Below the pieces are notes generated by a model. It was not told the DNA's origin. It searched no databases and saw only the letters and a program-made list of their open reading frames with translations. A DNA stretch of 63,618 bases, filler included, from Dugesia japonica (Eukaryota), in NCBI GenBank assembly GCA_001938525.1. It is 6 parts of 6 records of this genome, joined end to end, with 100 filler letters (N's around TTAATTAATTAA, not from the genome) between each part and the next. Parts side by side here need not be neighbours in the genome. Positions count along the whole stretch, not along the records: positions 26,613 to 36,460 come from MQRL01484267.1; 5 more parts are not named here. One strand, written 5' to 3'. Every line of letters begins with the position of its first letter. Position 1 is the first letter of the stretch. Made by a program: the position numbers and the translations under genes. Shown piece by piece: positions 13,639-49,980 of this stretch.

Positions 13639-14830
13639 TTACAATAAATAATGCCCGTATGGTAAGCTCATATTTTTCTCTGTCCATACTCTCTNNNNNN
13701 NNNNNNNNNNNNNNNNNNNNNNNNNNNNNNNNNNNNNNNNNNNNNNNNNNNNNNNNNNNNNNNNNNNNNNNNNNNNNNNNNNNNNNNNNNNNNNNNNNNN
13801 NNNNNNNNNNNNNNNNNNNNNNNNNNNNNNNNNNNNNNNNNNNNNNGCTTTCATTGATTCTTTCTCGCTAAGTAGGCTATAACACTTTGGTCTAAAAAAT
13901 ATCCATTCTTGATATTTCTTTACTCTCATCCTTGAACTTTCCAATTACTGAATTAAAATTATTTCTGTAAAGGGGATGGTTTGTGCTGTAATTGGATGTG
14001 TCCAATCGCTAGTCTTTCACCATTAATCCGGTTAGTTTTTCCAATTTTATGTTCTTAATCTCCAGGAAAAAACTATCCGTGTTACCGGCTACAATATTTT
14101 TCTCACAAATTTCTTCTTTTCTGTACTTTTCCAACTCAATGTACTGTAATCGGTACATTCTTAACTTACTTAAGTCTCACAATTGCGTTTCCTAGTCCGT
14201 TCAATGTAGCTCGGTCGCTCAAAACAAACAATGTCTTTATTCATTAAAACAGCAATTAGATCATCATCAATTTTAGTTGTTTTTCTGAAACCAGCTTTTG
14301 ATGTAAATTTTGATGTAATTGAGCTGAATTACACAATCCTTAATTTATTCTTTTCTTTAAATTTTCAACTGTTTTACCATACAAACTATTATTTAAAAGC
14401 TTACAATAATTCTTCTCCAACTCTGTTTTACACCCTGATCTTAATTCAGATATATCGTTTGAAAAATAGATGCTTGGCTAAACTTTACTCCTCTGTGTAC
14501 TTTTGTTATTTGTACACCAAATTTCAAATAAATTTGCAGCAATCTCCAATATATGACATAATTTTCTTTCGGAAAATGAGTCAGCATTAATTTGATCACC
14601 TTACTATCTGGAGCACTTTAATGTTCTGATGCAACAGCTAAATCATTCAGTTCATTTTGGATTTCTGCTGATATAACCATATCTACTTCTAATGTGTATC
14701 CATATGGTAACGATTCGAGATTTCCTATTCTGTATTCTTCCAATACTGAATCCAATCAAATATATACCCACTCGAAATCGGCATAGGGCAATCTCTGACT
14801 TAATGCCCATCCATATAGATTATTGATGTT
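13639..14830 (-). pseudogene. Polinton protein-primed family B DNA polymerase (pPolB), decayed
   Basis: INNLYGWALSQRLPY (~14785-14830), LRMYRLQY..IVAGNTDSFF (~14065-14165), RPKCYS and C-terminal SLPYGHY. Homologous to 30455-32140. Confidence 0.9.
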
Positions 14831-22029: not shown

Positions 22030-24110
22030 ACATATCACAATCCTCTTTTTTAAGAGTTGATCATATATTTGGGATTTGGCTTCTTCTCTCGTTAGATATC
22101 GCCTTTTGTATTGTCCTGAGTTGTCTATAAGAACAAGTTTTGCATCATTGTTGCTAACATTCGAATATGTGGCACTTATGATTGATCCGTCAACTATTTC
22201 ATTTTTATTTCTGAATTCTCACTTGGTGAAGATTTCGACGAATTACTTTCATTTCATCATCTAATTCTAAATTATAATTACTGAGAAACTAGCTTACCAT
22301 CTAAGCCCTGTATATCTTTTTAAGTAACCCTCTCTCGTCTATTTTTACCATTACTCAATCTCCAATATTTAATGTAGTGTTCTGATTTTCTGCTTTAGTT
22401 TCTTTTGGAATCTGTTTTCTATTTTCTGTAATTCTCTCCCTTTGTGTTTTAAAGTTATTCTGAAAAGCCATCTTGTCAATTTCTACATTTGCAGTCAAAA
22501 TATTTGGTTTCAAATCCATCTTTTTTCCAAATAGAATTTCATAAGGCAAGACTTCTAATTTTTTACTACTTGATGATCTCATACTTAGTTTAAGAAAAGG
22601 AACTGCTTTAACCCATGATTGGTTATGTGACTTACAAGATGCATATAATTTGTCTTTGGCTGTTATAAATACACTTTCTATAAGTCCACTAACTTGATGA
22701 TAATATGGTGCTGAAAATGATTGCTTTATATGTAATTTATTACACAATTCCTTCATCATTTACGATTTTAATTGTGTTCCGTTATCAGAATGAATTATTC
22801 TTGAAATCCCAAAGAACGCAATCTATCTTTAAAATATCATTTCGGTAACTGTCTTTGCAGAAATATTTTTCAATCGTATTAACGCTATATATCTAGAAAA
22901 AACATCGACGATTCTTTAAAATATGAATATCCATCAGAATTTGGTAGTGGTCCTGTTATATCGCAACATATCATTTCAAATTGTTCTGTCGCAGTAAAAG
23001 AGTTTTTGATATTGTAACCTATTTAATTTCTATGNNNNNNNNNNNNNNNNNNNNNNNNNNNNNNNNNNNNNNNNNNNNNNNNNTTTTTTCCATGTTTATC
23101 CATTCATGATATCTTTTGATATTAGTCAAAGTTTGTTTAGCGTTTGGATATCCTAATCGACCTTGAAAATATTTTAAAATTTAATTGATTTTCTTTTCAT
23201 ATTACTCTTTATGGGTATCTTTTAATTAATTGATTTGTCGATAACCTTCATCATCTGAATCGCTCTGGTTTGAGTTTGACATTTTGACATTTTTTCTAGA
23301 TTTTGAGTCGATATGTTTCATTTCACATTGTTCAAATTGGAATTCTCTAGGAAGTGCGTCTGCGTTTGCATGTAATTGTCGTTTTCGATGCTGAATTTCA
23401 AAATCATCCATCGATTCAGTAGTTCATCAATCCAGGAGCAGTACTGTGACGTATTAGGTCTTTTCCAATTCAACATCCATGTTAAACTTTTATGGTCTGT
23501 GCGAATAATAAATTTCTTCCAGGATAAATAATGCTTGTATTTCTTCACAAAGTAAACTGCCACAAGTTCTTTCCTGGTTATATAAAACATTTTTTCTGCT
23601 TTCGAAAACTTCTTAGATCCATAGCATATTACCTTTTCTTCGTTATCTTGAATTTTACTTAAAACTGCTCCCATTGCAAAGTGACTAACATTTGTATCCA
23701 ATACGAAAATATCATTCCTATATGGAAACGATAAAACAAGTGCGCTTGGAGTGCATGTTTCAGACTTTCAAAAGATTACTTATGAAATTCTTCCCATAGA
23801 AAATCTATCTTTTTTTCTTTTATCGTGATGTTTGCATCTCTTAACAAATCTTCAAGAGGTTTAGCACTTTAGCATATCCCCAAATAAATCTTCTTTAATA
23901 ATTGCAAAACCCTAGAAAACTTGATAATTCTTCATTTATATTAGATATACTCCAACTCTTTACCTCAATAATTTTTTCTGAATCAGTCGTCACTCCTTCA
24001 CTTGATATTTTGTGATCCCAATGTTTTACTGAAAATTTCAAAAAACGCATTTCTTTGGAGTTATTTGCATATACTTTGCTTTTAACATATTTGATAATAA
24101 TAAGTAAATG
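22030..24110 (-). mobile_element. Decayed Gypsy pol (RT end, RNaseH, integrase)
   Basis: ORFs DTNVSHFAMGAVLSK..KELVAV..RTDHKSL, HANADALPR and SAPYYHQVSGLIE; also DITGPLP and IHSDNGTQ integrase motifs. Confidence 0.9.
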
Positions 24111-26612: not shown

Positions 26613-26685
26613 ATGCTCTTTGTTCTATTAGTTCTTTGTCTAGGGGGGAGGGGGGGGTGATCCAGTGCGCCACTATCTACCTACT
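26613..26685 (-). mobile_element. Polinton terminus at scaffold edge
   Basis: Minus strand AGTAGGTAGATAGTGGCGCACTGGATCACCCCCCCC. Confidence 0.75.
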
Positions 26686-26779
26686 AATATCCTATTAAAT
26701 TTTTTTCAATTATGACCGTACAAGACTAAATTTAGCCTATGTTTACTTTTAGGTGGATCACATAATGAAAAAGTTAGAA

Positions 26780-27371
26780 AAGAGTTAGAAAATGAGTAAA
26801 AATAGAAAACAAACCTTCATTATGTAAAACAGCAGTATTTAATATGAGCCTTGTCCTTGAATAGACTTGCTTAATTTTTTTATATCAGGTTTATAACTAT
26901 TTAACTTGAGTTTTATACACGATTCAGAAAGATGATCTGTCAAACAACTTTTTTGTTGGTTCAATATATACTTAATACATGCAACACTTTCTCGACAAAA
27001 CACACATATAGCTTTATTTTTAAATAAAACAAATCTATATTCTTCCTTCCAACTCTTTTTCCACATAAACTTTTGTTTTTTTTTGGAAATCTCTGATCAT
27101 TTGTGTTGGAATTTGATTGCATAAAATAGGAGTAAAATTATTTTTCTAGTATAAAAAGTTTTAGTATTATTTAAAACACAAAAAATAAATATTGCTATGC
27201 AGCAAGTTTTCATATATTACTATATAATAAAAGCACACGTTTAATATCGATTAAAAAATAAAATATAATATTTTCTACAAATACCAACATATTACAATAT
27301 TTTGGAAAAATTATAAATTTTTATTAACTTTTTAAAATTTTACTTTGCGTGCCATAAGTTGCCGACCCCTG
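26780..27371 (-). mobile_element. hAT (GTF2IRD2/Charlie-like) transposon 5' fragment
   Basis: TIR CAGGGGTCGGCAAC at 27371 (minus). ORF WKEEYRFV...KAICVFCRESVA resembles the BED-type zinc finger of this group. Confidence 0.75.
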
Positions 27372-27399
27372 CTCAACCTTGTGAATAAAGTTTTGAATC

Positions 27400-27602
27400 C
27401 ATTTTTGAAAATTTCGGCTGTAGACCGTTTTAAAAACTTCAAAGTGAAATATCTGCCGAAGAAACACAAACCGAAAATTTGGAGACGATAGAAGTTCTTA
27501 GAATTAAATTCTGCATCTATATGTCCAAAGTTGAATTTCCTACATCCTTTCCTTTGACGGCTAGTGGGGAGAGGTGAGCTGATGCGCGACTATTTACCTA
27601 CT
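27400..27602 (-). mobile_element. Polinton-type terminal fragment
   Basis: Minus strand AGTAGGTAAATAGTCGCGCATC..CCTCTCCCC; homologous to 11975-12142. Confidence 0.65.
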
Positions 27603-28496
27603 TTCCTCTTTCTAATTAATTATATTTCTCCTCAAATATAATTCGTTTAATTTATCTAATATTAATTCTTTTATCTTCTTGAGCCGTGTTTTTATATATT
27701 TTCTTATAACTTTCTCTGGAGCTTTATTTCATATTTATTTTTTTCCTTAAGTAATTAATTTATTAATAATTATTTCTTTTTCAGTTGTATTTATTAATAT
27801 TTATTTTCTTTTATTTCGATGATTATCATTTCTGCACTCCTTTTGTTTGAACATTTGATTTTTATAGTCTTTATTTTGTTCTATGTAATTATTTATTTTT
27901 ATTTCTTTCATATTTTACATTGATACCTCGAAATTCGTTTAATTTATTGTAATTTGTAATTATTCATTTTCATTAAGTAGAAAATTTAATAATTCATATT
28001 TTTATTAGCATTTTTCCACTAACATTAAATTGAAGTACTTTAGTTGCCGACACTTTTCTGTTATCATTGTCAAACTGTATATTAACTGAGTTTTCTTTAA
28101 GTCAAATAAACTTAAAATTCTAATTTTGAATTGAAATGTGTTAAATATACATTAAAATTATGATTTTAATTAGATATTAGAAAAATTAAATATTCGTGTG
28201 CACATCTGTTGTAAATAAAGGTAGTTCTCGTTAGTTTATTTAACAACCAATTAGAATACCTATTTATATGAAAATTTTCATAATCATTAGTGTGCAAATA
28301 TTATAATTGAAATCATTCAACTCTTTATAATTAAAATATAAATATAAATGTTAACCCACAGTACTTAAAGTAATAATATTTAAAAATGATTTTCATTAAA
28401 AATATTATAAACTCAATTAATAAGTAACATAATATTATCACTTGAACACAAACAAGTAAAAGATTAATAAATAATAATAAATACAATCATTTTTTT

Positions 28497-28512
28497 GGTC
28501 CTGAAAGGGACC
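28497..28512 (-). promoter_or_regulatory. Histone-mRNA-type stem-loop (one mismatch)
   Basis: GGTCCC-TTTC-AGGACC followed by AAAAA. It shares upstream AAGTGAGAACGCAT with the copy at 28810. Confidence 0.6.
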
Positions 28513-28809
28513 GAAATGCGTTCTCACTTCATTTACATATTGATTCATTTAATTCCTTCTTTTAATGAAATATTGATTCATCATTAAAAATAAATCTATT
28601 GATTCATTGTTTCTTTGTTTCTAAATAATATTTTCTAAAGTATATTTATAAAAAAATTAAAACATTTAACAATCAAAAAAATTACTATTTTGCTTCAACA
28701 CTTTTTAAACACTAAATTATCGTTATTCTTCTGTTTTCTTTTCTAAATATTAATTTATTAAAATAATTATATCAGAATTAACTGATAATTAGATTCAATC
28801 ACAATTTGT

Positions 28810-28825
28810 GGTCCGAAAGAGGACC
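28810..28825 (-). promoter_or_regulatory. Histone-mRNA-type stem-loop ~41 nt after helicase stop codon
   Basis: GGTCCT-CTTT-CGGACC (one mismatch at the top pair) followed by the histone-type flank ACAAA. Confidence 0.65.
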
Positions 28826-28866
28826 ATTATGCGTTCTCACTTGTTTATTTAGAATATTTGTTTACT

Positions 28867-29466
28867 TTAGAATAAATTTTGAGAAAAATATTCATCCATT
28901 TGATTTGTGAATTTAGATATTATTGGTTTACGATTGGATTCATTACTGTCGTTGATGAACAGAGGTTCGTTGCCGAATATATAAAAATGACACCGTTTTC
29001 TTATTGCTACATTTCGTCCTTTATTCCAATTTATATTGATTAGATCATCCATTGAGTTCCAACAAATGATAATCCTGTCGTTCGCAGGTATTATACCTGT
29101 GCCATATTTCAAATGTATCGAAGTATTATAGCAGGTTATAGCAATTTTATATTTCTTCGGCAGTCCATGTGTGTAAGGGTAGATCATCAATTACACATCT
29201 ATCATACCAAAATCTCAAAGTCCTGGTGAATTGTGACGTGTATTGGTTGCTTAAAAGGACTTAACGCGAAATTGGTTTTCCCAATACCTAAAACAAAAAC
29301 ATAAATTCTTGAAATTTAAAAATTAAATAAATGGCTTTCGTACGATCGTTATCACAATTGAAGAATTCTAATTTCTAATTGGTGTTGGATTTTGGTATTC
29401 CGGGTATTTCATCATCGTTAAAATTTGAACATGTTGGCTGTTCATTAACATTTTCAATGTTGTTTC
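28867..29466 (-). pseudogene. CRESS/geminivirus Rep-like SF3 helicase domain with intron acceptors, frameshifted
   Basis: Composite reading RTKAIYL..[acceptor TTTTAG at 29288]..(G)IGKTNFALSPFKQPIHV..YDRCVIDDLP..SIHLKYGTGIIPANDRIIICWN..AIRKR..EPLF gives Walker A, Walker B, motif B'/C and an Arg-finger region. A second acceptor TTTCAG lies at ~29467. Confidence 0.75.
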
Positions 29467-30210
29467 TGAAATAATATAAAAATTAATAACTTATTAAACA
29501 AAAAACAATAATTTATTACGAGTAGATGGATAGTAGCGTACGGGGCCACCTCGCCCGACCCTTGCAGAGAAAGAAAATTTTAACTGGCCTCGATTTTTAT
29601 TGTTTACATTGTTCGCACAAACGTTTTTAAGATTTTTGATTGACCTAAATTTTAAGGTCTAGTGGCCCCGATTTTAAACATTTTGATTGGTGGAAATTTT
29701 TAAGTTCAGGATCATTTGGCCTCAATTTTTGATGAGTCATAGATGTGTTCAGATGAAATTATCGTTGGGTTTTAAGATCAAGGTAATTTGTTTTTTGTTT
29801 AAATTAAATGAAATTAACGATTTTTATTTAAATTAAGTGAGATTAATGATTTTTTTGTTTAGATTAATTGATTTTTCTGATTGGTTTAAATTTACTGATT
29901 TTTTAGATTTTAATTTAAATTAAGTGATTTAATGATTTTTTTGGATTTGTCATAGAAAGCCGATGGTAAAATTTATTTTTTTTCAAATTTCAAATTTTGT
30001 AGTGAATTTCCGCCTGGGCAATATTAACATCAATATTAGAAACATTACATGTTTCTCAGACAATATTAATAATAATATATAAAAGACAAATGAAAAGGCT
30101 AATCCAAACTTAAAATTTATTGTTGATAAAACGTAGATAATTACAGTTATCATGTACAGTTGTTTAAATCTGGATCTTCATTTTGTAAATTAGATCTTAA
30201 TATTACAAGA

Positions 30211-30312
30211 TTTCATTAAAATAAGAAAAAGCTTTCATCAAAATAAAATTTATTTGAACCTTTTTACAAATAAATTTTATTTTGATCGAAGCATTTTCTT
30301 ATTTTAATGAAA
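30211..30312. repeat. 46-bp inverted repeat with 10-nt spacer
   Basis: 30211-30256 versus the revcomp of 30267-30312 shows 3 mismatches. Confidence 0.85.
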
Positions 30313-30454
30313 TGTCAAATGCGATCAATGGTTAAATCCATAAATTATTCTCACAATTATTGTAATAATGAAATTAATAGTACAAATTAATTAGTTTAAA
30401 TAACAAAGAAATTACCTGTGAATGTGCTTCTTTTCATCCGAGTCTTATTTATTA

Positions 30455-32140
30455 CGAGATAGAATAATGCACGTATGGTACACTTATATTTTTTCAGGCC
30501 ATGCTCTTTTGTCGTCATTATTGGTTAATGCGACTTTTGGTGCTAAGAAACTGTACAGCTGGTGGTTTTTCGTTTCTATTCTTAATTGTTTCACTGAGAC
30601 CGGTTTACTGTAATTGTAACAATCAAGGTATGACTGATGATTAATGTCAGTACCTTTTAATGTTATGATCTTAGCCTTCATCGATTCCTTCTCGCTAAGT
30701 AAGCTATAACCCTTCGGTCTCACGAAAATTCATTCTTTATATTTCCTTCCTTTATTTTTGTCCTTAAAGTTTCCTACCACCGAATTGAGTTTCATGTGAT
30801 AAAAAGTGCGGTCTAATGAGTAATTTAAAGTATTTAATAGTCGATCTTTTACTACCAGTGTCAATAACTTTTCCAANCTAATGTTTCTAACTTCTAAGAA
30901 NAAGCTATCGGTATCCCCAGCTACTATTTCTATCTCGCAATTTTCTTGTTTCCTATATTTTTCTAGATCAATGTATTGAAGTCGATACATTCGTAATTTG
31001 ATTAAATCAAGAACTGTCTGTCCTATGTAACTCGGTCTTTTGAGACACACAATGTCTTTATTTAATTGTACCNCTATTAAATCTTTATCGATCTTAATGG
31101 TTCTCTTAAACCCTGGTTTTGAGGTATAGGTCACTAAATTCTTTGCACTAATTACATATTCTCAAGTTTATTCGTTTCTTCAAATTTTCAACTGATTAGC
31201 CATACAAGCTGTTGTTCATCAGCTTATAGTAACTTTTGTCTAATTTATTCACACTTTCAGCTCTTAATTTAGTGTTTTCGTCGATGCATTGCTTGAAAAT
31301 ATGATCTTGTAAAAACCTAACTGTTCTGTGAACATTTGTAACTTTCACAACTAATTGCAAGTACATTTTTAGTAATCTCCAGTGTACTACGTAATTGAAC
31401 TTTGAATAATGAGTCAACATTAATTTCTAGACCTTTCTTCCTGGAGCATATTGATGTTCGGCTGCAATGGTTAAGTCACTGATATAATTGTAAAGTTCAT
31501 TGAGAATCTCCATGTCAACTTCTAGTGTGTATCCATATTGTAACGACTCGAGATCTGCATATTTACATTCTTCTAAAACTTCTTCTAATCCATAATATAC
31601 CCATTCATAATCTTTGTATGGTAACTTCTGGCTCAAATCCCAACCACACAGATTATTTATATCGATGTATAACAACTCTGTGTTTTTATCTGAAATAACA
31701 TGGTGTTTGTTAGCCCATCTCTAATCTCACCTTCAAAAAAGGTGTAAATGTCTTTATCAATTAAAAACTCGATGGGTTCGTTTTAAGTGATCAAAGCAAA
31801 TGCCCAGCACATACCTGGAATGCCAAAATAATTTAAGAGTTCCAAGCGGTTGTGAGCTAATGATTTGACTCAGAATTGCTGAAAAAAGTCAGCTAGGAGA
31901 AAGACATCCAACTTCATGTACAACAGCATTTAGTCCTGTAAGTTTTTGCATTTCAAGATTTTCCACATATCCACCGCTTTTTTATGTTCTTGTTCACTAA
32001 TTCCATCCCATTTTGGTGGCATTTTCTTGGTATTAACCAGCACTTGTAAACTGGTAGCAAGATTGCAAGGGGAAATTCCCCTTTGTCCTTATAATTCTGC
32101 TTTTGATAAATTGATACATTCAAACAAAGAACAACCAATA
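30455..32140 (-). pseudogene. Polinton pPolB, decayed
   Basis: KGEFP, YMKLDVFLLADFF, LYIDINNL.GW.LSQKLP, KLMNNSLYG, IVAGDTDS, GNFKD, RPKGYS, KVAL..NDDKR. Confidence 0.95.
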
Positions 32141-32413
32141 AAAATAATGCTCACCAACTGCATATCAACTATTTCATACAATGATTAAGTTCAACAAATC
32201 AAAAAGTTGTAAATGCTTTGTTTAACTGGCAGTGGCTTTGCATTTGTATTGCACTTATAATATTTAAACAAATAATTACCAATCAAAACATGTGAATAAT
32301 CAAAAGTAACATATTTTCAACCAATAAAATCAATGCATACAAACTATACAATAAATACTTATCGACACTAAGTTTAAAAGCAAAAATATTTAATAAATTT
32401 TGATTATTTAAAT

Positions 32414-32860
32414 ATGCAACCAAGTATTGAATTAATAAAGGATAATGTTATGACCTGTGGATTACGGAAAGCCTACCAAATTTTATGGAATCCAAATGAA
32501 ATTTTTCAAGAGAACAATATTATATATGTTTCAAATAATTGTATTTATTTATTTTATTACTTAATATTTTCATCTAGGAACCTGTGAAAATACAACAATT
32601 TACTTATAGTTTGGTGATATCTGATATTGGTTCAAAAGACAAGAATACTTTGAATTTATTAGTCAAAAGAATTGAACCGTCAATTATAATAAATGATATA
32701 GTTTTTATCAATTAAAGTGATTCAAAATCGACTGTATTCGAAACATCACAATAATATATGATTCAGGTGAAAATACAAGGAGTCAAGAAAAATGGAGACA
32801 ACATTAACTCAGTAAACTCAATTAATAGAAAAGTTAAATCTCCAATTTGGAAAATTTGAG
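32414..32860 (+). pseudogene. Polinton accessory gene, 2 exons (intron 32528-32577), unknown function
   Basis: Upstream CCAAT boxes and a GT-AG 50-nt intron. Homologous in position and sequence (PV.I after the intron, Y.IQV.I.G.KK) to 53323-53757. Confidence 0.55.
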
Positions 32861-33174
32861 AAATTTTGTAAATGTTGTTATAATAATAAATGTTATTTAT
32901 TTATTCGTCTTTTTAACTAACTCTGTTTAAATCGTAATTTTTAAACAGATTTACCTATCAAATTAAATACAAAAACCTTATCTCTAAATAACGCCTATCA
33001 AAGTAATAAAAACTCTATTTCAAATAATAACTAAAATCTTTATGATAAAAAAATTACTTAAAAACTCTTTTAATTAATAATAACTACCAAATCAAATAAA
33101 AACTTTATTATAATTAACTAACAAAGTAACTATATGAACAAAAATAGAAACAAATTTCATAACAAACAATTTAT

Positions 33175-33471
33175 TAACACAAATTTATAAGCCTCTCGAG
33201 GAGCATATATCTACACTTGTAGCATTTACAATGGAAGTGTAGATATATGTCCTTATAATAATTGTCTAAGACTTGTTGATAGTCTTCTTTTTGCAGGACG
33301 ATGCTTTTCTGAAAAAATGATTGCGATAATATCTAGAAATAAAATATTATAAATAATAAATAAATAAAAAATTAAATATTACCCTTTTCGCTAATCAGGT
33401 CCTCCTGACCATATGATTCTGCTGATTCATAACAACCTTTTCAGAATTCTTCAATTTTTTTTGGAATTCAT
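33175..33471 (-). pseudogene. Polinton small spliced Cys-containing ORF (intron 33382-33333)
   Basis: GT-AG 50-nt intron and C-terminal HCKCYKC. Same position as 53943-54242. Confidence 0.4.
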
Positions 33472-33632
33472 TATTTAAAATTAAAAACTGATTAAAATGA
33501 AATATTTAGTGTGTTATATACAATTCTCTGTTTAACACAAATCGACCAATGAAAAAGAAGTAATAATCAAAAAAGGAAATGCCTTGTTATACTTGCATTC
33601 ATATTACATGACTGTGCATTCTTGTTGTGAAA

Positions 33633-33900
33633 TTAAACAATTAAGTTATAGAAATCAGAAATTATATTATCTACATATCTTTGGTAGTGTAAATTCTTTA
33701 TATGAAGTATTACAATTTTTTTTGATGAAAATACGTTTACACATACAGGTTCATACTTCGTAAGTTGTAATGCGGGAAACAATTCCGGTTCAAACCAGCA
33801 TTTTGTTGTTTTTGCTAATTTATACAAATTGATAACTTGTCCCAAATTGTATTACAATTGTTAATGATTGCAAACGAATATCTTTGATATCATACAGTAA
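33633..33900 (-). pseudogene. Polinton-encoded TBP-like protein, C-terminal repeat (N-half deleted)
   Basis: YDIKDIRLQSLTIV/LGQVINLYKL..WFEPELFPAL..VCVNVFSSKKIVIL matches TBP repeat 2 (YEPELFPGL..LIFVSGKVVLTG). Confidence 0.85.
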
Positions 33901-34085
33901 TCTTTTGCAAGACAGGCCTATAGATTAGTAATAGACAACTTTTTATTGAATCATTTCAATATGCAACAATAAATCTACTTGGTTATATTTTTCTCGACTT
34001 TACACAACAATGTCTAGGCAAAGTGAGGGTGAGAACCGATATTTTCAATTCTGGTCGTGTTACTGTGTATAAACAAACCAAGTAA
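33901..34085 (+). pseudogene. Polinton packaging ATPase (FtsK/HerA, A32-like) C-terminus
   Basis: FARQA..LFIESFQYAT..GYIFLDFTQ..RVRTDIF matches the ARQ..AT..YGYL.LD..R.RTNIF tail of Polinton ATPases. Confidence 0.8.
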
Positions 34086-34099
34086 TTATTATATTTAAA

Positions 34100-34640
34100 A
34101 ATGGCAAAATTTTAAAAGTTTATAGTTGATCAAATAAAAAGAATTCCGAAGATAAAAAAAGGAAAACGAACAAAAAGCGTATTGTAAGAAAAAATGTGGA
34201 AAGAGGAAACAATCTAAACTGTTGAACATTTTTAAGAAACTATCAAAACTGTATGGAAAGAAAATGTCCAACGTAAACGGAAAATGGAAATCATTTTAAA
34301 CAAATACGGGTAAGTTATATTATTAAAATATAAGAAGTACAACGAAGTATTCCAATTTTTACATCATTAATTAAATCTTCAAAATCGGTGAAAATGCAAA
34401 TTTTGAAATCATTTCCAACGTTTGTTATGGATGATTTAATTGAAATTATTATAAGTATTGTTCGCGAAAATGTAAATGTGAGTATTTCTAGAAAGGAAGT
34501 ATTGAAAAAACATAAAAGAACGCGATTAACACTTGTAAATACCAAAAATAGGAAATTGGTGAGACAAATAATACGTCATAATAAAAGAAGTAGCTTTATA
34601 GCAGCATTACTACCAATTAAAAAATTGATGAGTAGTAAAA
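34100..34640 (+). pseudogene. Basic small Polinton ORF(s) between ATPase and integrase
   Basis: The Lys/Arg-rich ORF (LIEIIISIVRENV..LKKHK..SFIAALLP) resembles small basic Polinton core-like ORFs. Confidence 0.45.
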
Positions 34641-35612
34641 TTGATGAAAGAAACACAAAAAACAAAATCAAAAACCAAAACGTGGTTATCGGGTCAACTA
34701 GCGTACAGTTTTAACAAACCAATGTTGAAAAGATTTCCAACAAGATTGTATAATAGGTTTGGTATTGATGATTTATGGCAGATGAATCTAATGGAGATGA
34801 TTCCATATTCAAAAATAAATAAACGATATAAGTTTATTTTGACATGTATTGATGTATTCAGTCGATTTGCAAGAGCTATTCCGGTCAAATCGAAATCCGC
34901 TAATGAAATGGAACTTGCAATTAAGTCAATATTCAAAGATGGACATCCAGATAATTTGCAAACAGATTTGGCTAAGAAACTTTACAACTCTAAAGTCAAA
35001 AATCTTTTATCACATCTAAACATAAACCATTATATCGTATTCTCTCAGTATAAAGCGGCAAATGTAGAGAGATTTAATCGCACATTAAGATATGCTTTGA
35101 AAAAATACTTTGTGTATACTGGTAATAAAACTTGGATAAATGTGTTGTCAAAATTGATTCATAGTTATAATCATTCAAGTCATAAAAATGTAAATAGAGC
35201 AAGACCGGTTGATATAGGTTCAAACAATGAATTAAAATTATGGTTATCGCGTGATCAAAGTAAAGCAAATTAGAAACCAAACTATAAAGTCGGTATCATG
35301 TTAGAATCTCAAAAATAAGTGCATCTCCATTCATTAAAAACTTTGATAGTAACTGGAGCGATGAAGTGTGTCAAATAACAACAATCTATTCTAAACAAAA
35401 TCCAGTCATATATTTAATTAAAGATTATGAGAATAATATTATAAAAGGAAAACTTTATGAGCAAGAATTACAAGTCATTCCATCTTCTACTATATATAGA
35501 ATCGAAAAATTAATAAAATTGAAAGAAATCGGTTAAAATAAAGAATATTATGTAAAATGACATGGATATCAAAAACCTACTTGGATATTATCATCACAGT
35601 TAGTTAATAATG
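34641..35612 (+). pseudogene. Polinton retroviral-like integrase (c-INT) with C-terminal chromodomain-like region
   Basis: DDLWQMNL, LTCIDVFSR, LQTD, KAANVERFNRTL; downstream WSDEV.., GKLYEQELQ and YYVK*HGY...W. Frameshifted after 35273. Confidence 0.92.
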
Positions 35613-36460
35613 ACTTTGAATAATTTCTATAAACCTTTATCTAGTAATAGCTGTCTTCCTATTCATCCGAATAATAATGCTAGTAAATTCATTGTTGAGC
35701 TTCAAAATTCGATTTATATGGATGGTCAGTAGGAAGTAGCATTGTTAGATTTTACCTTTGTATATCAAACATTTCCATTATATAGCAAGTCTAAAATTCA
35801 ATACATGTCTACAAGAAATATATCAAATGAAATAACTGTTACAATTAATCACAAAGAAGAACCCTTGAGTGTAAGCAAAAATGAAAATAACAATGTCTAT
35901 ATGGCGTTTAATGGTTATTTAACTATTAAATGTGAATATCCATATGTTGTCATATTTGAAAATGAAATAGTTGCAAATAGATTAGGGCTCTCATATAGGA
36001 TTAATCAAATGGATCCTGGATATTTTCATATTAAGTACATAGCATTTAAAGAATATTTTCCAGTAGAATATGTAAAATTTAAAATAGAGTATTGTAAAAT
36101 AAATTATCCTACTATACAGTTGAAAGATGAATTATAATTAACAGAAATTGAAGAATTAAGTAAATATTTAACAGAAAGCGGTTCTGAACTATTTTATACA
36201 ATCAGTCTCAAAGAAAATAATCTATTTCAAATGTCACTAAAAATGATATCAAAACTGTTACATTCGATAAAGTCTTGACAAAAACATTGGGATTAGAAAA
36301 ACAAGCATATTCACATTCAGAATTGAAAGATGGCATATTGCAAGGTATTACAAATCCCAAAATAATTAAGTTATATCAACAAATGTTCATCTATAGTAGT
36401 ATTGTTGAACCTATAATTGTAGGAAATGTTAAAGTTCCTCTTTAGAGATCGGTATGGATA
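35610..36460 (+). pseudogene. Polinton minor capsid (penton-like, PX) protein
   Basis: N-terminal FY..LSSNS....P.NNASKF.VEL.N.I..DGQ*EVAL and C-terminal MFIYSSIVEPIIVGNVKVPL*R match the Polinton minor capsid motifs. Confidence 0.85.
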
Positions 36461-45778: not shown

Positions 45779-45889
45779 NNNNNNNNNNNNNNNNNNNNNN
45801 NNNNNNNNNNNNNNNNNNNNNNGTTTTTCTCCCTAATGTATTTTTCTTTATAACCGACTGTTTGACCCCAACAATATTATCCGGAAATG

Positions 45890-46430
45890 CAACTCTTTAT
45901 GGAATACACCACTGATTGGTGTTTAGAAAAAGGAAAAGAAGGACATTAGAATATGATTGCATTTCAAACAATTCAATGCAGTAACAAAAAGACAAGCCTG
46001 TTCAATGCCTAATTTTGATGAAATGCTGGACAAGTCAGGTGGACCAAATTATTTCAGGTCAATAGATTTAGAAATGCGTGCTATCAGGTAGACTTTGAAG
46101 AAGAATCTCACGAAAAAACGGCATTTTCTACGAAGCATGACATTATTGTTTTAAAAGAAAATGGCATTTGGCGTCGACGTGGCACAAGAGACATTTCAGG
46201 AGATGATAAAAAAAGTAGTAGGCGGAATAAATGGAGCATTGGTTTATCTTGATGACATTCTGATATTTACGAAAAATAAAGATAGAATCTATGAAGTAAG
46301 TGACAGAGTATTGACGGAAATAATGAAGGCTGGTTTGAGAATTAATCCAGAAAAGTGTTAGTTTCTTCAAAGTGAAATAAAATTTCTTGGACACATAATA
46401 AGCAGGGAAAGTGTTAGAACTGATAAAAGT
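45890..46430 (+). mobile_element. Gypsy RT fragment
   Basis: WNTPL, EKTAFST, MAFG..TFQ, VYLDDILIF, LRINPEKC, KFLGHIIS..VRTDKS. Confidence 0.9.
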
Positions 46431-47333
46431 AATAGTGTATAGTACGCTTGACATGGGAATCAGTTTATAGTAATTGCGCAATTAACAATTTTTTAGAGGA
46501 TAAAGACGTGAGAGGAATTTTTACTACAAAACACAATTCAAAAAACACAAATCCACAATCAACAATAAACAAACCCCAGGCACAAACCACAATTTATTTC
46601 GTTTTTAAAAACACCCCTGTTGTAGGGGTATTAGTTACATCTTTTCTTTATATGTAATTACGACTTATTTTCTGTTGTAGTGGTAATGATTTCTGTTTAG
46701 GTGGTATTGGTGAGTATTCGCTTTTTCATAAATTTCATTTGAGCTACAGTGCAGGCTACCCTCTTGTCTTAAAAGCGTATTATACACTTTTGCTTTTCTT
46801 ACAACTTTTCTTTAGTTATAATTGCTCATTTTGTCATAATTGACCATTTTGAGGTTTTATATTTTTGTTGGTTTCTTGTTTAAAAGATTTTAAAAACTTT
46901 TTGAAATAATGGGAAATTTTGAATTAAAAATAAAATTTAGTTATTACTGATTTCTGAATTTACGATAAATTAACTTTTAAAATTATTTCAAACATTATTT
47001 TATTAGTAAAATCTAATTGCACATATAATGGTTTAGTGTAAAAATTCATAGAACGTTTTTGAAAGTTTAATTAATTGAAAACCTCATAAAATATCGATTA
47101 AGAACATAAAAGGTAATTAAATTTACAAAAATAAATTTCAAATCTAAGAAAATAANNNNNNNNNNNNNNNNNNNNNNNNNNNNNNNNNNNNNNNNNNNNN
47201 NNNNNNNNNNNNNNNNNNNNNNNNNNAATTAAATAACAAATATTATGAAAAACAAAATATTAAAAAAATCTTTTCTTCAAACTTTTAACAACACAAGACC
47301 GATATCGTTTTAATCTCTAGTCAATTGATCAAT

Positions 47334-48010
47334 TTAAAATGTAGAAATAGCAAATCCGAGGGCCCAGCTTAGATATGTTCCATTTATGCTTTTTGAAATA
47401 TGTATTTTATCACCCATATAAAACTTGTATCCTTTGAAAAATAGAGCCGCAATATATGACATATCTACGCACAAAAAATGTACAAATGGGCTTCCCTTAG
47501 CAAGACGATCCATTAAAGTACATTTCGTATATGCTTCACTATTTATTTTATACATGCTGTATTTAATTGTATCATTTTTAGATTTATTAGCCATAGCTGA
47601 GGATATTAAATAATAGAATGCAGAAATACCAACAAAATCCATATCCTCGTGGTACATTCTAATTGGTTGTATATTTGTAAGATAAGAAATGCCTTTTTCG
47701 TGGCAATAGCTAGATCTATTTCGGAGAGAAGTATAAAATCTACAGTAAATTGGGATTTCGCAATTACGATATTTAAATCTAGCTAGAACGTCATTATGCA
47801 TACATTTAGATCCTAGGGATTCTTCTCTACAACAGGAATCTACGCAATCCGTTGCATTGAAATATTTTGCACGTATTTCATTAATACCCANNNNATTATA
47901 ACCAGCAACATAAATATAATATTCCTTCCCGAATAATGTCATAGTTTTATCGGGTGGTGAATCATTTGTGGTTGCAAAATTATATTGTGTTTCCCAAATG
48001 ATGTTGCTTT
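47334..48010 (-). pseudogene. GDA1/CD39 family NTPDase (apyrase), C-terminal half, intronless, 5'-truncated
   Basis: YYIYVAGY..GINEIR, FVGISAFYY, FLCVDMSYIAALF..GY and C-terminal ACR5 SWALG. There is no C-terminal TM segment. Confidence 0.75.
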
Positions 48011-48157
48011 GGGATATAATTGTTGAATTTCTCTAGGCGAATCTGTCAATTGATTCTTTCTTAGACTGATGAGTTTGTTTAGCGTAAGGTTTTTTTTTAA
48101 TAAGGAAATTATATTTTCTTAATTAATTAGTAAAATATATAAACTCAACAATTGCTT

Positions 48158-48440
48158 TGGCAACATCAATTGGGAAACAGAATATAATTTTGCAACCACA
48201 AATGATTCACCACCGGATAAAACTGTTAGTATAACATTATTCGGGAAAGAATATTATATTTATGTTGCTGGTTATAATTACATGGGTATTAATGAAATAC
48301 GTGCAAAATATTTCAATGCAANGGATTGCGTAGATTCCTGTTGTAGAGAAGAATCCCTAGGATCTAAATGTATGCATAATGACGTTCTAGATAGATTTAA
48401 ATATCGTAATTGCGAAATCCCAATTTACGGTAGATTTTAT
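48158..48440 (+). pseudogene. Inverted partial duplicate of the NTPDase fragment
   Basis: Near-identical revcomp of ~47735-48007 (GINEIRAKYFNA.DCVDSCCREESLG..). Confidence 0.85.
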
Positions 48441-48656
48441 AAAATTTATATTTTGATTCTTAATCCTGATTCTCTTATTTTGTAAAATATTTCNNNNNNN
48501 NNNNNNNNNNNNNNNNNNNNNNNNNNNNNNNNNNNNNNNNNNNNNNNNNNNNNNNNNNNNNNATCATGTATCAACTTTTAAAACGTTGCCTGTGCCGTTG
48601 CTAACACGAATGGAATCCAATTCAACCTAAAGAATGAAGTTTGAACCAAATCAACA

Positions 48657-49980
48657 AAAATTGACGCGATACAAAATTTCAGAAAACCTAAATGTGTAAA
48701 GAACTTGAGAAGCTTTTTGGGAATATGCAATTACTATAGACGGTTTATCAATAACTACTCAAAGAAAGCTAGAAGCTTGGAAGAACTATGTCGAAGTAAT
48801 AATAAAAAACTTCGGTGGTCTGAAAATTNNNNNNNNNNNNNNNNNNNNNNNNNNNNNNNNNNNNNNNNNNNNNNNNNNNNNNNNNNNNNNNNNNNNNNNN
48901 NNNNNNNNNNNNNNNNNNNNNNNNNNNNNNNNNNNNNNNNNNNNNNNNNNNNNNNNNNNNNNNNNNNNNNNNNNNNNNNNNNNGTCATTGCATATAGGTC
49001 ACATGCAATGCCAGCTCATAAAAAAGGATATTATATAACAAGAAAGGTATTATTGGCGGTTTTCTATTTTTCTTTAACCATTTTAAACATTATTTGTATT
49101 GAAAAAGATTTGTGGTGAGATTAAATCACAAGGCGATAGCATTTATGATAAAGACAAACAAGTCAATTACTCGGCAATTTCAGACTTGAATGAATTTTCT
49201 TAGTACCCTAGATATGATATTGGAATTTAGACAAGGGGTGAAACACACTATTGCAGATATGCTGTACGCGTGTATAATGCTTAACAGATCATGAGAATCC
49301 AAAGGAAGGAAAAATAAAGACAAGAACAATTAATTGTATATCAGGCTCAGATACATATAAATGGCAAAGGTAGAAAAAATTGAACAGATAAAAAATGATA
49401 TAAAAATAAAACATGTAAAATGTTTCAATTAATAGAAGATATAATAAAAACAAAAGACGACAAAATATGGATCCCGTCAGAAAGAAAAATTCAAATGGTA
49501 AAATAAATTCATAGTTTATTGGTGCACACAGGCACGGAAAAAGTAATAAATTATTTAAAAAATGAATATGACATNTAGAGTTGGGGAGAAACTGTGTCAA
49601 AAGTAATTGAAGAATACACAGCGTGTATTCTGAACAAAGTAACAACAATTAGAACAAAGGAGGAAACTATAAAATTAAAGGCTAATGAATCATTGGCGAG
49701 TATTTATCTTGATAAATGTGGGCCATTCCGAGAAACCGTATGAAGAAAAGGATATATGTACCATAATAGATAATTTTAACAGATATATATGCCTAACAGG
49801 TCTAGTCAAACAAGATGAGGAATCAATAAAGAAAACGATTATGGATAAATGGATACTGAGATTTGGTGCCCTAAAAGAGATATATGTAGATTGTGGGAAA
49901 ACCTTCAAATCAAAAGCCTTCAAAGATTTGACAGATTTAATGAATAAAACAATTTGCTTTTCATGTCCATATCATCATGT
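48657..49980 (+). mobile_element. Gypsy RT connection, RNaseH and integrase fragment
   Basis: KIDAIQNFRKP..LRSFLGICNYYRRFI, VIAYRS..YITRK.LLAV, HSLLVH.G, IIDNFNRY, WILRFG..EIYVDCG, SCPYHH. Confidence 0.9.

Follow-up and report, generated by a model that had tools for sequence, protein, structure and literature searches.

A TBP gene inherited with the packaging ATPase in Polintons, represented by two decayed copies in Dugesia japonica, as a candidate late-promoter factor

A clade of Polintons has inherited a TBP of about 150 residues together with its packaging ATPase, under purifying selection, and the intact protein would probably serve these elements as a late-promoter factor. The family was recognised from two broken copies in a window of 63,618 nucleotides of the planarian Dugesia japonica (assembly GCA_001938525.1; the window is the whole stretch of DNA analysed). 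We propose that the TBP would be expressed early, from a host-type promoter, that its altered DNA-binding face would read YATAAAC, a variant probably less favoured by host TBP, that host TFIIB and RNA polymerase II would be brought in by the acidic stirrup it has kept, and that the particle genes (capsid, packaging) would consequently be switched on late. The protein and the box are linked by co-occurrence, and binding, start sites and timing are predicted from sequence. The two copies in the window are dead and could be only targets, never sources, of TBP activity.

Six AT-rich scaffolds make up the window, joined by artificial N44-TTAATTAATTAA-N44 spacers. Copy 1, the subject of this analysis, lies on the third scaffold (26613-36460) and copy 2 on another (45823-55098). 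The initial annotation had assigned copy 1 to a Polinton with pPolB, integrase and minor capsid on a scaffold of its own, and all three were located there, in the order pPolB (-), TBP (-), ATPase (+), core-like (+), integrase (+) and penton (+) (Table 1). pPolB, an rve integrase, a packaging ATPase and a penton thus occur in one element, the combination that marks an adintovirus-like Polinton/Maverick. The element is decayed and truncated by the scaffold end at 36460, beyond which its major capsid, protease and terminal inverted repeats would lie; a protease was seen in related loci. The penton label derives from the fold of a relative, which matched the mavirus penton (Z 13.1, rmsd 4.6, 235 aligned residues) and whose best five chains of 48,161 were viral capsid or penton proteins; a sequence search of the PDB gave no match for the penton, nor for the putative major capsid, a label that stands without confirmation by search. 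A motif scan found no element terminus. On a 4-kb stretch of this element, three runs of one species yielded 23,461, 15,252 and 16,697 DNA contigs, mostly 90-99% alike, and such tens of thousands suggest that the family is highly repeated in that species, although they measure depth and not copy number. Other mobile and gene-like pieces were also seen in the window: a third Polinton piece with pPolB only at the end of scaffold 1 (13847-14830; 67% nucleotide identity to the pPolB of the copy 1 scaffold), decayed pieces of LTR retrotransposons with RNase H and integrase on scaffolds 2 and 5 (22358-23767, 45901-46358, 49679-50089), and two partial GDA1/CD39 (NTPDase) copies in opposite orientation and without introns over 232 codons (47337-48482).

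Table 1. Features of the two TBP-bearing Polinton pieces, in coordinates of the window.
Feature	Position	Strand	Remarks
pPolB, protein-primed DNA polymerase B, decayed 3' part	30458..32082	-	profile and related-locus match
Remnant of unnamed accessory gene, cluster c2	32605..32862	+	c2 adjoins TBP in 23 related loci
Polinton TBP gene, 3' remnant (3' 60%), copy 1	33633..33900	-	codons about 60-147 of 152-aa relative, whole second TBP repeat
Inferred deletion junction, TBP body joined to ATPase 3' end	33901..33906		about 0.74 kb lost
Packaging ATPase, 3' remnant	33904..34085	+	last about 55 codons, frameshift near 33925, stop at 34085
TATAAAC box in last ATPase codons	34068..34074	+	34 nt upstream of ATG at 34102
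Decayed basic core/protein-X-like gene	34102..34618	+	match 34334-34618; start at 34102 inferred
Integrase, retroviral-type (rve), frameshifted	34632..35605	+	profile and related-locus match
Minor capsid (penton) gene, decayed, cut by scaffold end	35613..36460	+	folded relative
Second TBP copy (copy 2), full length, broken	54383..54825	-	frameshift near 54560, in-frame stop at 54478
Head-to-head spacer, 102 nt	54826..54927		TATAAAC 54885-54891, ATPase strand only, 43 nt before ATPase ATG
Packaging ATPase 5' end, Walker A	54928..55038	+	near scaffold end

The TBP motifs reported for copy 1 lie on the minus strand, where 33636-33851 scores 27.9 bits on the Pfam TBP profile PF00352 (cut-off 22.9), and the remnant is 77% identical to P0002, its best intact relative (152 aa). 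They abut the ATPase C-terminus as had been described, since ATPase homology on the opposite, plus strand starts at 33904-33907, 4-7 nt past the end of TBP homology. A frameshift-aware alignment places TBP codons about 60-146 at 33900-33639 and one frameshift near 33850, which is absent from contigs and reads of related copies, and 26 RNA reads of related copies depart from the window sequence at the TBP/ATPase junction; the remnant has departed at 3 of 19 near-invariant family sites. Copy 2 preserves the undeleted layout, with the TBP starting at 54825 (-), the ATPase at 54928 (+) and 102 nt between them, and contigs of related copies run continuously across TBP, spacer and ATPase start (the one listed piece across the spacer has just 18 letters in TBP, below the 31-letter threshold). 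The initial annotation had invoked a single deletion at about 33900 that took away both 5' halves and a shared promoter of a head-to-head pair. One event of about 0.74 kb, a size estimated from copy 2 and intact ATPases, would account for the layout of copy 1, but the loss was unequal rather than a matter of two halves (by the same estimate TBP lost about 59 of its 152 codons and the ATPase about 153 of 210), and the spacer is at most a candidate shared promoter, the box lying on the ATPase strand only. Copy 2 departs at 5 of 30 near-invariant sites and has lost the first acidic residue of the stirrup; both window copies are pseudogenes. Acidic ORFs at 52715-53182 and 53946-54167, which follow the copy 2 TBP on its strand and match neither Pfam nor related loci, are possibly accessory genes of its element. 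RNA reads from two runs of one species numbered 1212 on copy 1, and 394 and 49 on copy 2; they are mostly less than 90% alike and fall on both strands, the deeper run leaning to one strand over TBP, ATPase and integrase, and because they are diverged, on both strands and of unrecorded strandedness they are uninformative on TBP expression. At 54877, just before the box, five RNA reads from a single run finish in a long stretch of A, which could be an artefact or a retroelement tail next door in another copy.

A search with P0002 returned 149 proteins at E<=0.001 among 158 candidates, and an aligned set of 93 has a median length of 151, a mean identity of 38% and 13 invariant columns; one 16-row clade (support 99) contains both window copies, in separate sub-branches. 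We examined 80 of the 85 loci found. A Polinton hallmark gene is present in 34 of the 80, most of the others being short, and eight loci of at least 3 kb are without one, most of which have accessory genes in common with hallmark-bearing loci. Where TBP and ATPase occur together (24 loci), the ATPase is downstream on the same strand in 21 (within 226 nt in 12) and upstream on the same strand in one, making 22 of 24 on the same strand, while two are divergent with intervening genes and none is directly head to head. The linkage of TBP and ATPase, for which a mapping of gene order had been suggested, is therefore general over these loci; the head-to-head layout predicted by the initial annotation is intact in copy 2, but this form is local to the subfamily in the window. 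The trees of the two proteins from 22 loci show the same 11+11 split with support of 100 in both, and their distances are correlated (Mantel rho 0.68 over 23 loci, L048 included; 0 of 2000 permutations), whereas shallower forks are mostly unresolved and some are discordant. L048 was left out of the second pair of trees for its frameshifted TBP ORF and a branch of 9.8, and L079 and L080 (27% identity, long branches) are probably outside the family. No relatives of TBP or ATPase were found in viral_contigs. Some related elements carry cargo near the TBP (L024, L030, L033, L038, L043, L012:225-719, L048:1710-2168), comprising leucine-rich-repeat proteins (with the box before 5 of 5), a ubiquitin-conjugating enzyme, RING fingers and KilA-N proteins.

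Codon alignment of copy 1 with copy 2, proposed earlier as the test of function, gave a dN/dS of 0.15 (82 codons; bootstrap 0-0.34), well below 1, although dS is near saturation (pS 0.69, pN 0.23; pN/pS 0.34, 0.22-0.49). Differences between the 82 codon pairs number 27 at first, 14 at second and 41 at third positions; 30 of 144 0-fold sites differ against 12 of 16 4-fold sites (p 2e-5), and the 48 identical residues are reached in none of 10,000 permutations (mean 33, maximum 46). Among off-frame controls, the reverse strand with common third positions gave a pN/pS of 0.46, as expected, and the remaining four lay at 0.8-1.6. In 18 of the 35 amino-acid differences between the copies a residue occurs that is absent from the 14 closest intact proteins, and these are likely to reflect decay after insertion. 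The ratio between copies therefore points to selection on active lineages before insertion, blurred by later decay. For intact relatives the median dN/dS is 0.195 (0.055-0.537; 49 pairs with usable divergence, drawn from 65 distinct intact genes of metagenome loci), and for the ATPase it is 0.113 over 9 pairs. A host TBP fragment captured once and copied without function might be suspected, because neither window copy is intact, decay could explain about half of their differences and dS between them is near saturation. However, every one of the 49 intact pairs lies below 0.54, the 93 proteins keep their invariant columns despite their divergence, the gene is co-inherited with the ATPase, and identity to cellular TBPs is only 21-26%; selection and family data together refute such a neutral passenger, to which we give almost no credence. 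The earlier view that the second copy attests a stable viral gene under purifying selection holds, given the low ratio between the copies and among intact genes, the 149 relatives and the deep split common to both trees; the copies themselves are decayed.

P0002 scores 50.4 bits on the same Pfam profile, above the cut-off of 22.9, and an AlphaFold model of an intact relative (pLDDT 95) has the two-repeat TBP saddle: it superimposes on yeast TBP with Z 13.2 and rmsd 2.7 A over 148 residues, residues 1-150 lying on yeast 66-240, and the first 39 rows of a Foldseek search are all TBP-containing entries. Compared with cellular TBP cores, the protein is short of about 25 residues, chiefly in the first repeat (aligned span 150 vs 175). 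We take E186 of yeast TBP to be an acidic TFIIB-contact residue. The C-terminal acidic stirrup of the family, equivalent to yeast 186-188, reads EPE in 89 of 93 proteins and DPE in 4; E188 is named, with E184, as an acidic TFIIB residue of TBP in passages of PMC12529657. The EPE noted in copy 1 is indeed present at this position, but it is a family-wide feature and not special to that copy. With DNA-contact residues taken from Table 1 of PMC12529657 (P0002 numbering, yeast equivalent in brackets), the family keeps N4 (N69), F41 (F116), L99/F100/P101 (L189/F190/P191), F116 (F207) and V122 (V213), whereas N6 (V71), R47 (V122), M49 (T124), S71 (N159), T73 (V161) and N114 (L205) stand as replacements in 85-93 of 93; T73 is the family residue at the V161 position. 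Three of the four intercalating Phe are kept in 93 of 93, and the F99 position is without Phe in either register tried, the register of the first-repeat stirrup and F99 being uncertain (hhalign probability 0.79%). Of the paired asparagines, the N69 equivalent is kept in 90 of 93 and the N159 equivalent replaced in 91 of 93. As judged from the alignment, the family has retained the acidic TFIIB stirrup while its DNA-binding face has been rewired; binding to TATA DNA and to TFIIB are candidate properties of the family. No TFIIB gene was found in the 80 TBP loci (fragments, the longest of 18 kb), and the TBP of a Polinton with its own TFIIB is without EPE. That Polinton-type element (L087:2278-3542; G004:C86, a 22.9-kb contig in a bacterial bin) encodes an unrelated 189-aa TBP (44.1 bits), with a TFIIB gene of 252 aa immediately behind it (27.2 bits plus a zinc ribbon), and has no YATAAAC box; its TFIIB has 23 further relatives, and 7 of the 24 are on contigs of 20-24 kb.

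An unguided word count before structural genes found ATAAAC to be the most enriched word (71/80 vs 41/157). YATAAAC, counted on the same loci in which its enrichment was found, occurs within 100 nt upstream in 69 of 80 de-duplicated structural, packaging and integrase gene regions: ATPase 18/19, core 12/15, integrase 11/13, penton 10/13, putative major capsid 9/9, protease 4/5 and c19 5/6. On the opposite strand of these 80 regions it is absent, shuffled sequences gave at most 3 per class, and only one of 56 TBP genes is preceded by it. The box also precedes PLA2 (8/9), c4 (8/11), LRR (5/5), c13 (3/5) and PolB (1/3), of which c4, LRR, c13 and PolB were not classed as late, a label assigned by gene identity. 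It stands most often about 35 nt before genes, and boxes inside coding DNA hold synonymous letters fixed (C-terminal sites 24/25, internal sites 9/46). Before TBP genes a different pattern prevails, a host-type TATA followed at 18-26 nt by an initiator-like TCA word, in 18 of 56 (shuffles mean 1.1, maximum 4) against 1 of 80 late genes, the pattern having been picked by eye. Over the whole window TATAAACA is not enriched (8 found, 11.2 expected); the copy 1 element has three plus-strand boxes, of which those at 35021 and 35628 are not clearly upstream of a gene start. In six loci (L053, L055, L059, L063, L067, L070) tandem boxes precede the core-protein gene, and the second, 7-11 nt from the ATG, is too close to it for a TATA element.

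Many boxes lie within the last codons of the upstream gene, and TATAAA and CATAAA are variants of the poly(A) signal. The box could accordingly be a 3'-end (polyadenylation or termination) signal of that gene, unrelated to the TBP, which would act elsewhere, e.g., on termini in replication or packaging; the TBP fold is also like that of rolling-circle initiators, at a low Z of 6.8. However, the copy 2 box lies in a head-to-head spacer in which no plus-strand gene ends, 16 of 23 ATPase boxes are outside clustered ORFs, and the invariance of the final C follows from how the enriched word was defined. We therefore hold a 3'-end signal to be improbable.

Harder to set aside, though still unlikely, is that a host factor reads the box, either host TBP on a weak TATA variant or a Forkhead protein, and that the viral TBP is a decoy or repressor, holding promoters or soaking up TFIIB and so damping host or early viral transcription. 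The Forkhead consensus is RYAAAYA, which ATAAACA fits, and PDB titles show plant TBP on single-base TATA variants; the residues missing from the first repeat may have taken partner surfaces with them, and a decoy, too, would need the stirrup that is kept. Yet the usual Forkhead site is GTAAACA, which is not among the top enriched words, and the distance from box to ATPase start is narrow (32-38 nt in 14 of 18), like that of a core-promoter element. The near-invariant new polar residues on the DNA face suggest a new specificity and not a loss. Moreover, the box is missing from elements without this TBP: it is kept in TBP-bearing loci at GC 0.39-0.47 (19 of 19), but before none of 12 hallmark genes in three fragments without a TBP match, controls that represent one clade, are incomplete, have a GC of 51-56% and come in two cases from one assembly, and before none of 4 genes in an element with an unrelated TBP. 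L085, at first a TBP-less control, carries an unrelated TBP and was moved out of this set. In L081, L083 and L084, which have no TBP match, the host-type TATA and initiator pattern stands in place of the box before 3 of 12 genes.

We thus prefer the late-promoter factor. TBP uses its first lobe for the downstream half of the TATA box, and cellular TBP disfavours a C at position 7. Going further, we lean, by a small measure, towards the view that a widespread clade of animal Polintons of 15-20 kb may run a herpesvirus-like early-late switch with one TBP of 150 residues, its first lobe for YATAAAC and its second for host TFIIB, and that another clade may use its own pair of TBP and TFIIB, with the stirrup dropped. 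If true, no smaller late transcription system encoded by an element itself would be known, and there would be direct evidence that these elements have a programmed virus life cycle. It bears on whether animal Polintons have a regulated virus cycle, and on how elements that encode no RNA polymerase turn on their capsid genes. A switch made of one protein and a 7-base target would be testable in vitro and would offer a sequence marker for late genes, orphans included, and the Polinton TBP might be regarded as a natural specificity mutant of TBP. The stretch in the window is a dead second copy, whose value is to confirm selection on the gene across subfamilies of this genome.

Compared with cellular TBP (PF00352; yeast, human, archaeal), the Polinton protein has in common the two-repeat saddle (Z about 13), three of four intercalating Phe, the N69 equivalent and the EPELFP stirrup at yeast 186-191, but it is of about 150 aa, with a shortened first repeat and no N-terminal extension, is 21-26% identical, is without Phe at F99, and has six DNA-facing positions replaced by family-invariant residues. 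The Nucleocytoviricota, too, have viral TBP folds that have diverged (E 1.2e-8 for the best BFVD match, from Heterosigma akashiwo virus), although these are larger and 11-20% identical. Nucleocytoviricota mostly encode their own RNA polymerase and TFIIB, whereas the Polinton element has no RNA polymerase. With adintoviruses and animal Polintons/Mavericks the elements have in common pPolB, rve integrase, packaging ATPase, penton, protease, protein-X-like and PLA2 genes, as far as these are treated in the sections of PMC8502044 covered here. The one trace of TBP seen in that paper was a label in the Figure 5 legend (MELD viruses, discussed under non-animal datasets), and its sections 3.1 and 3.4, further passages and one supplement describe no TBP family, residue analysis or promoter box; word searches gave no mention of TBP or TATA in bioRxiv 2024.03.18.585575, and TFIIB only for giant viruses in bioRxiv 2022.05.25.493380. 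In print, we found the Polinton TBP just as a figure label.

Viral TBP mimics for late genes are established in beta- and gammaherpesviruses (KSHV ORF24, EBV BcRF1, HCMV UL87), according to passages of PMC12529657, and the likeness lies in a TBP-like protein, a variant TATA before late genes and a polar DNA face in place of a hydrophobic one. ORF24, as described there, has 752 aa and all four Phe but no acidic residues for TFIIB, binds polymerase II directly and depends on five further viral proteins, whereas the Polinton protein is a bare saddle of 150 aa that keeps the acidic stirrup and is without extra domains. Structural likeness to BcRF1 is weak (E 2.8e-3), and the function of ORF24 is experimentally shown while that of the Polinton TBP is predicted. 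The Polinton TBP may work like the late-gene TBP mimics of herpesviruses, without being a member of the ORF24/BcRF1/UL87 kind.
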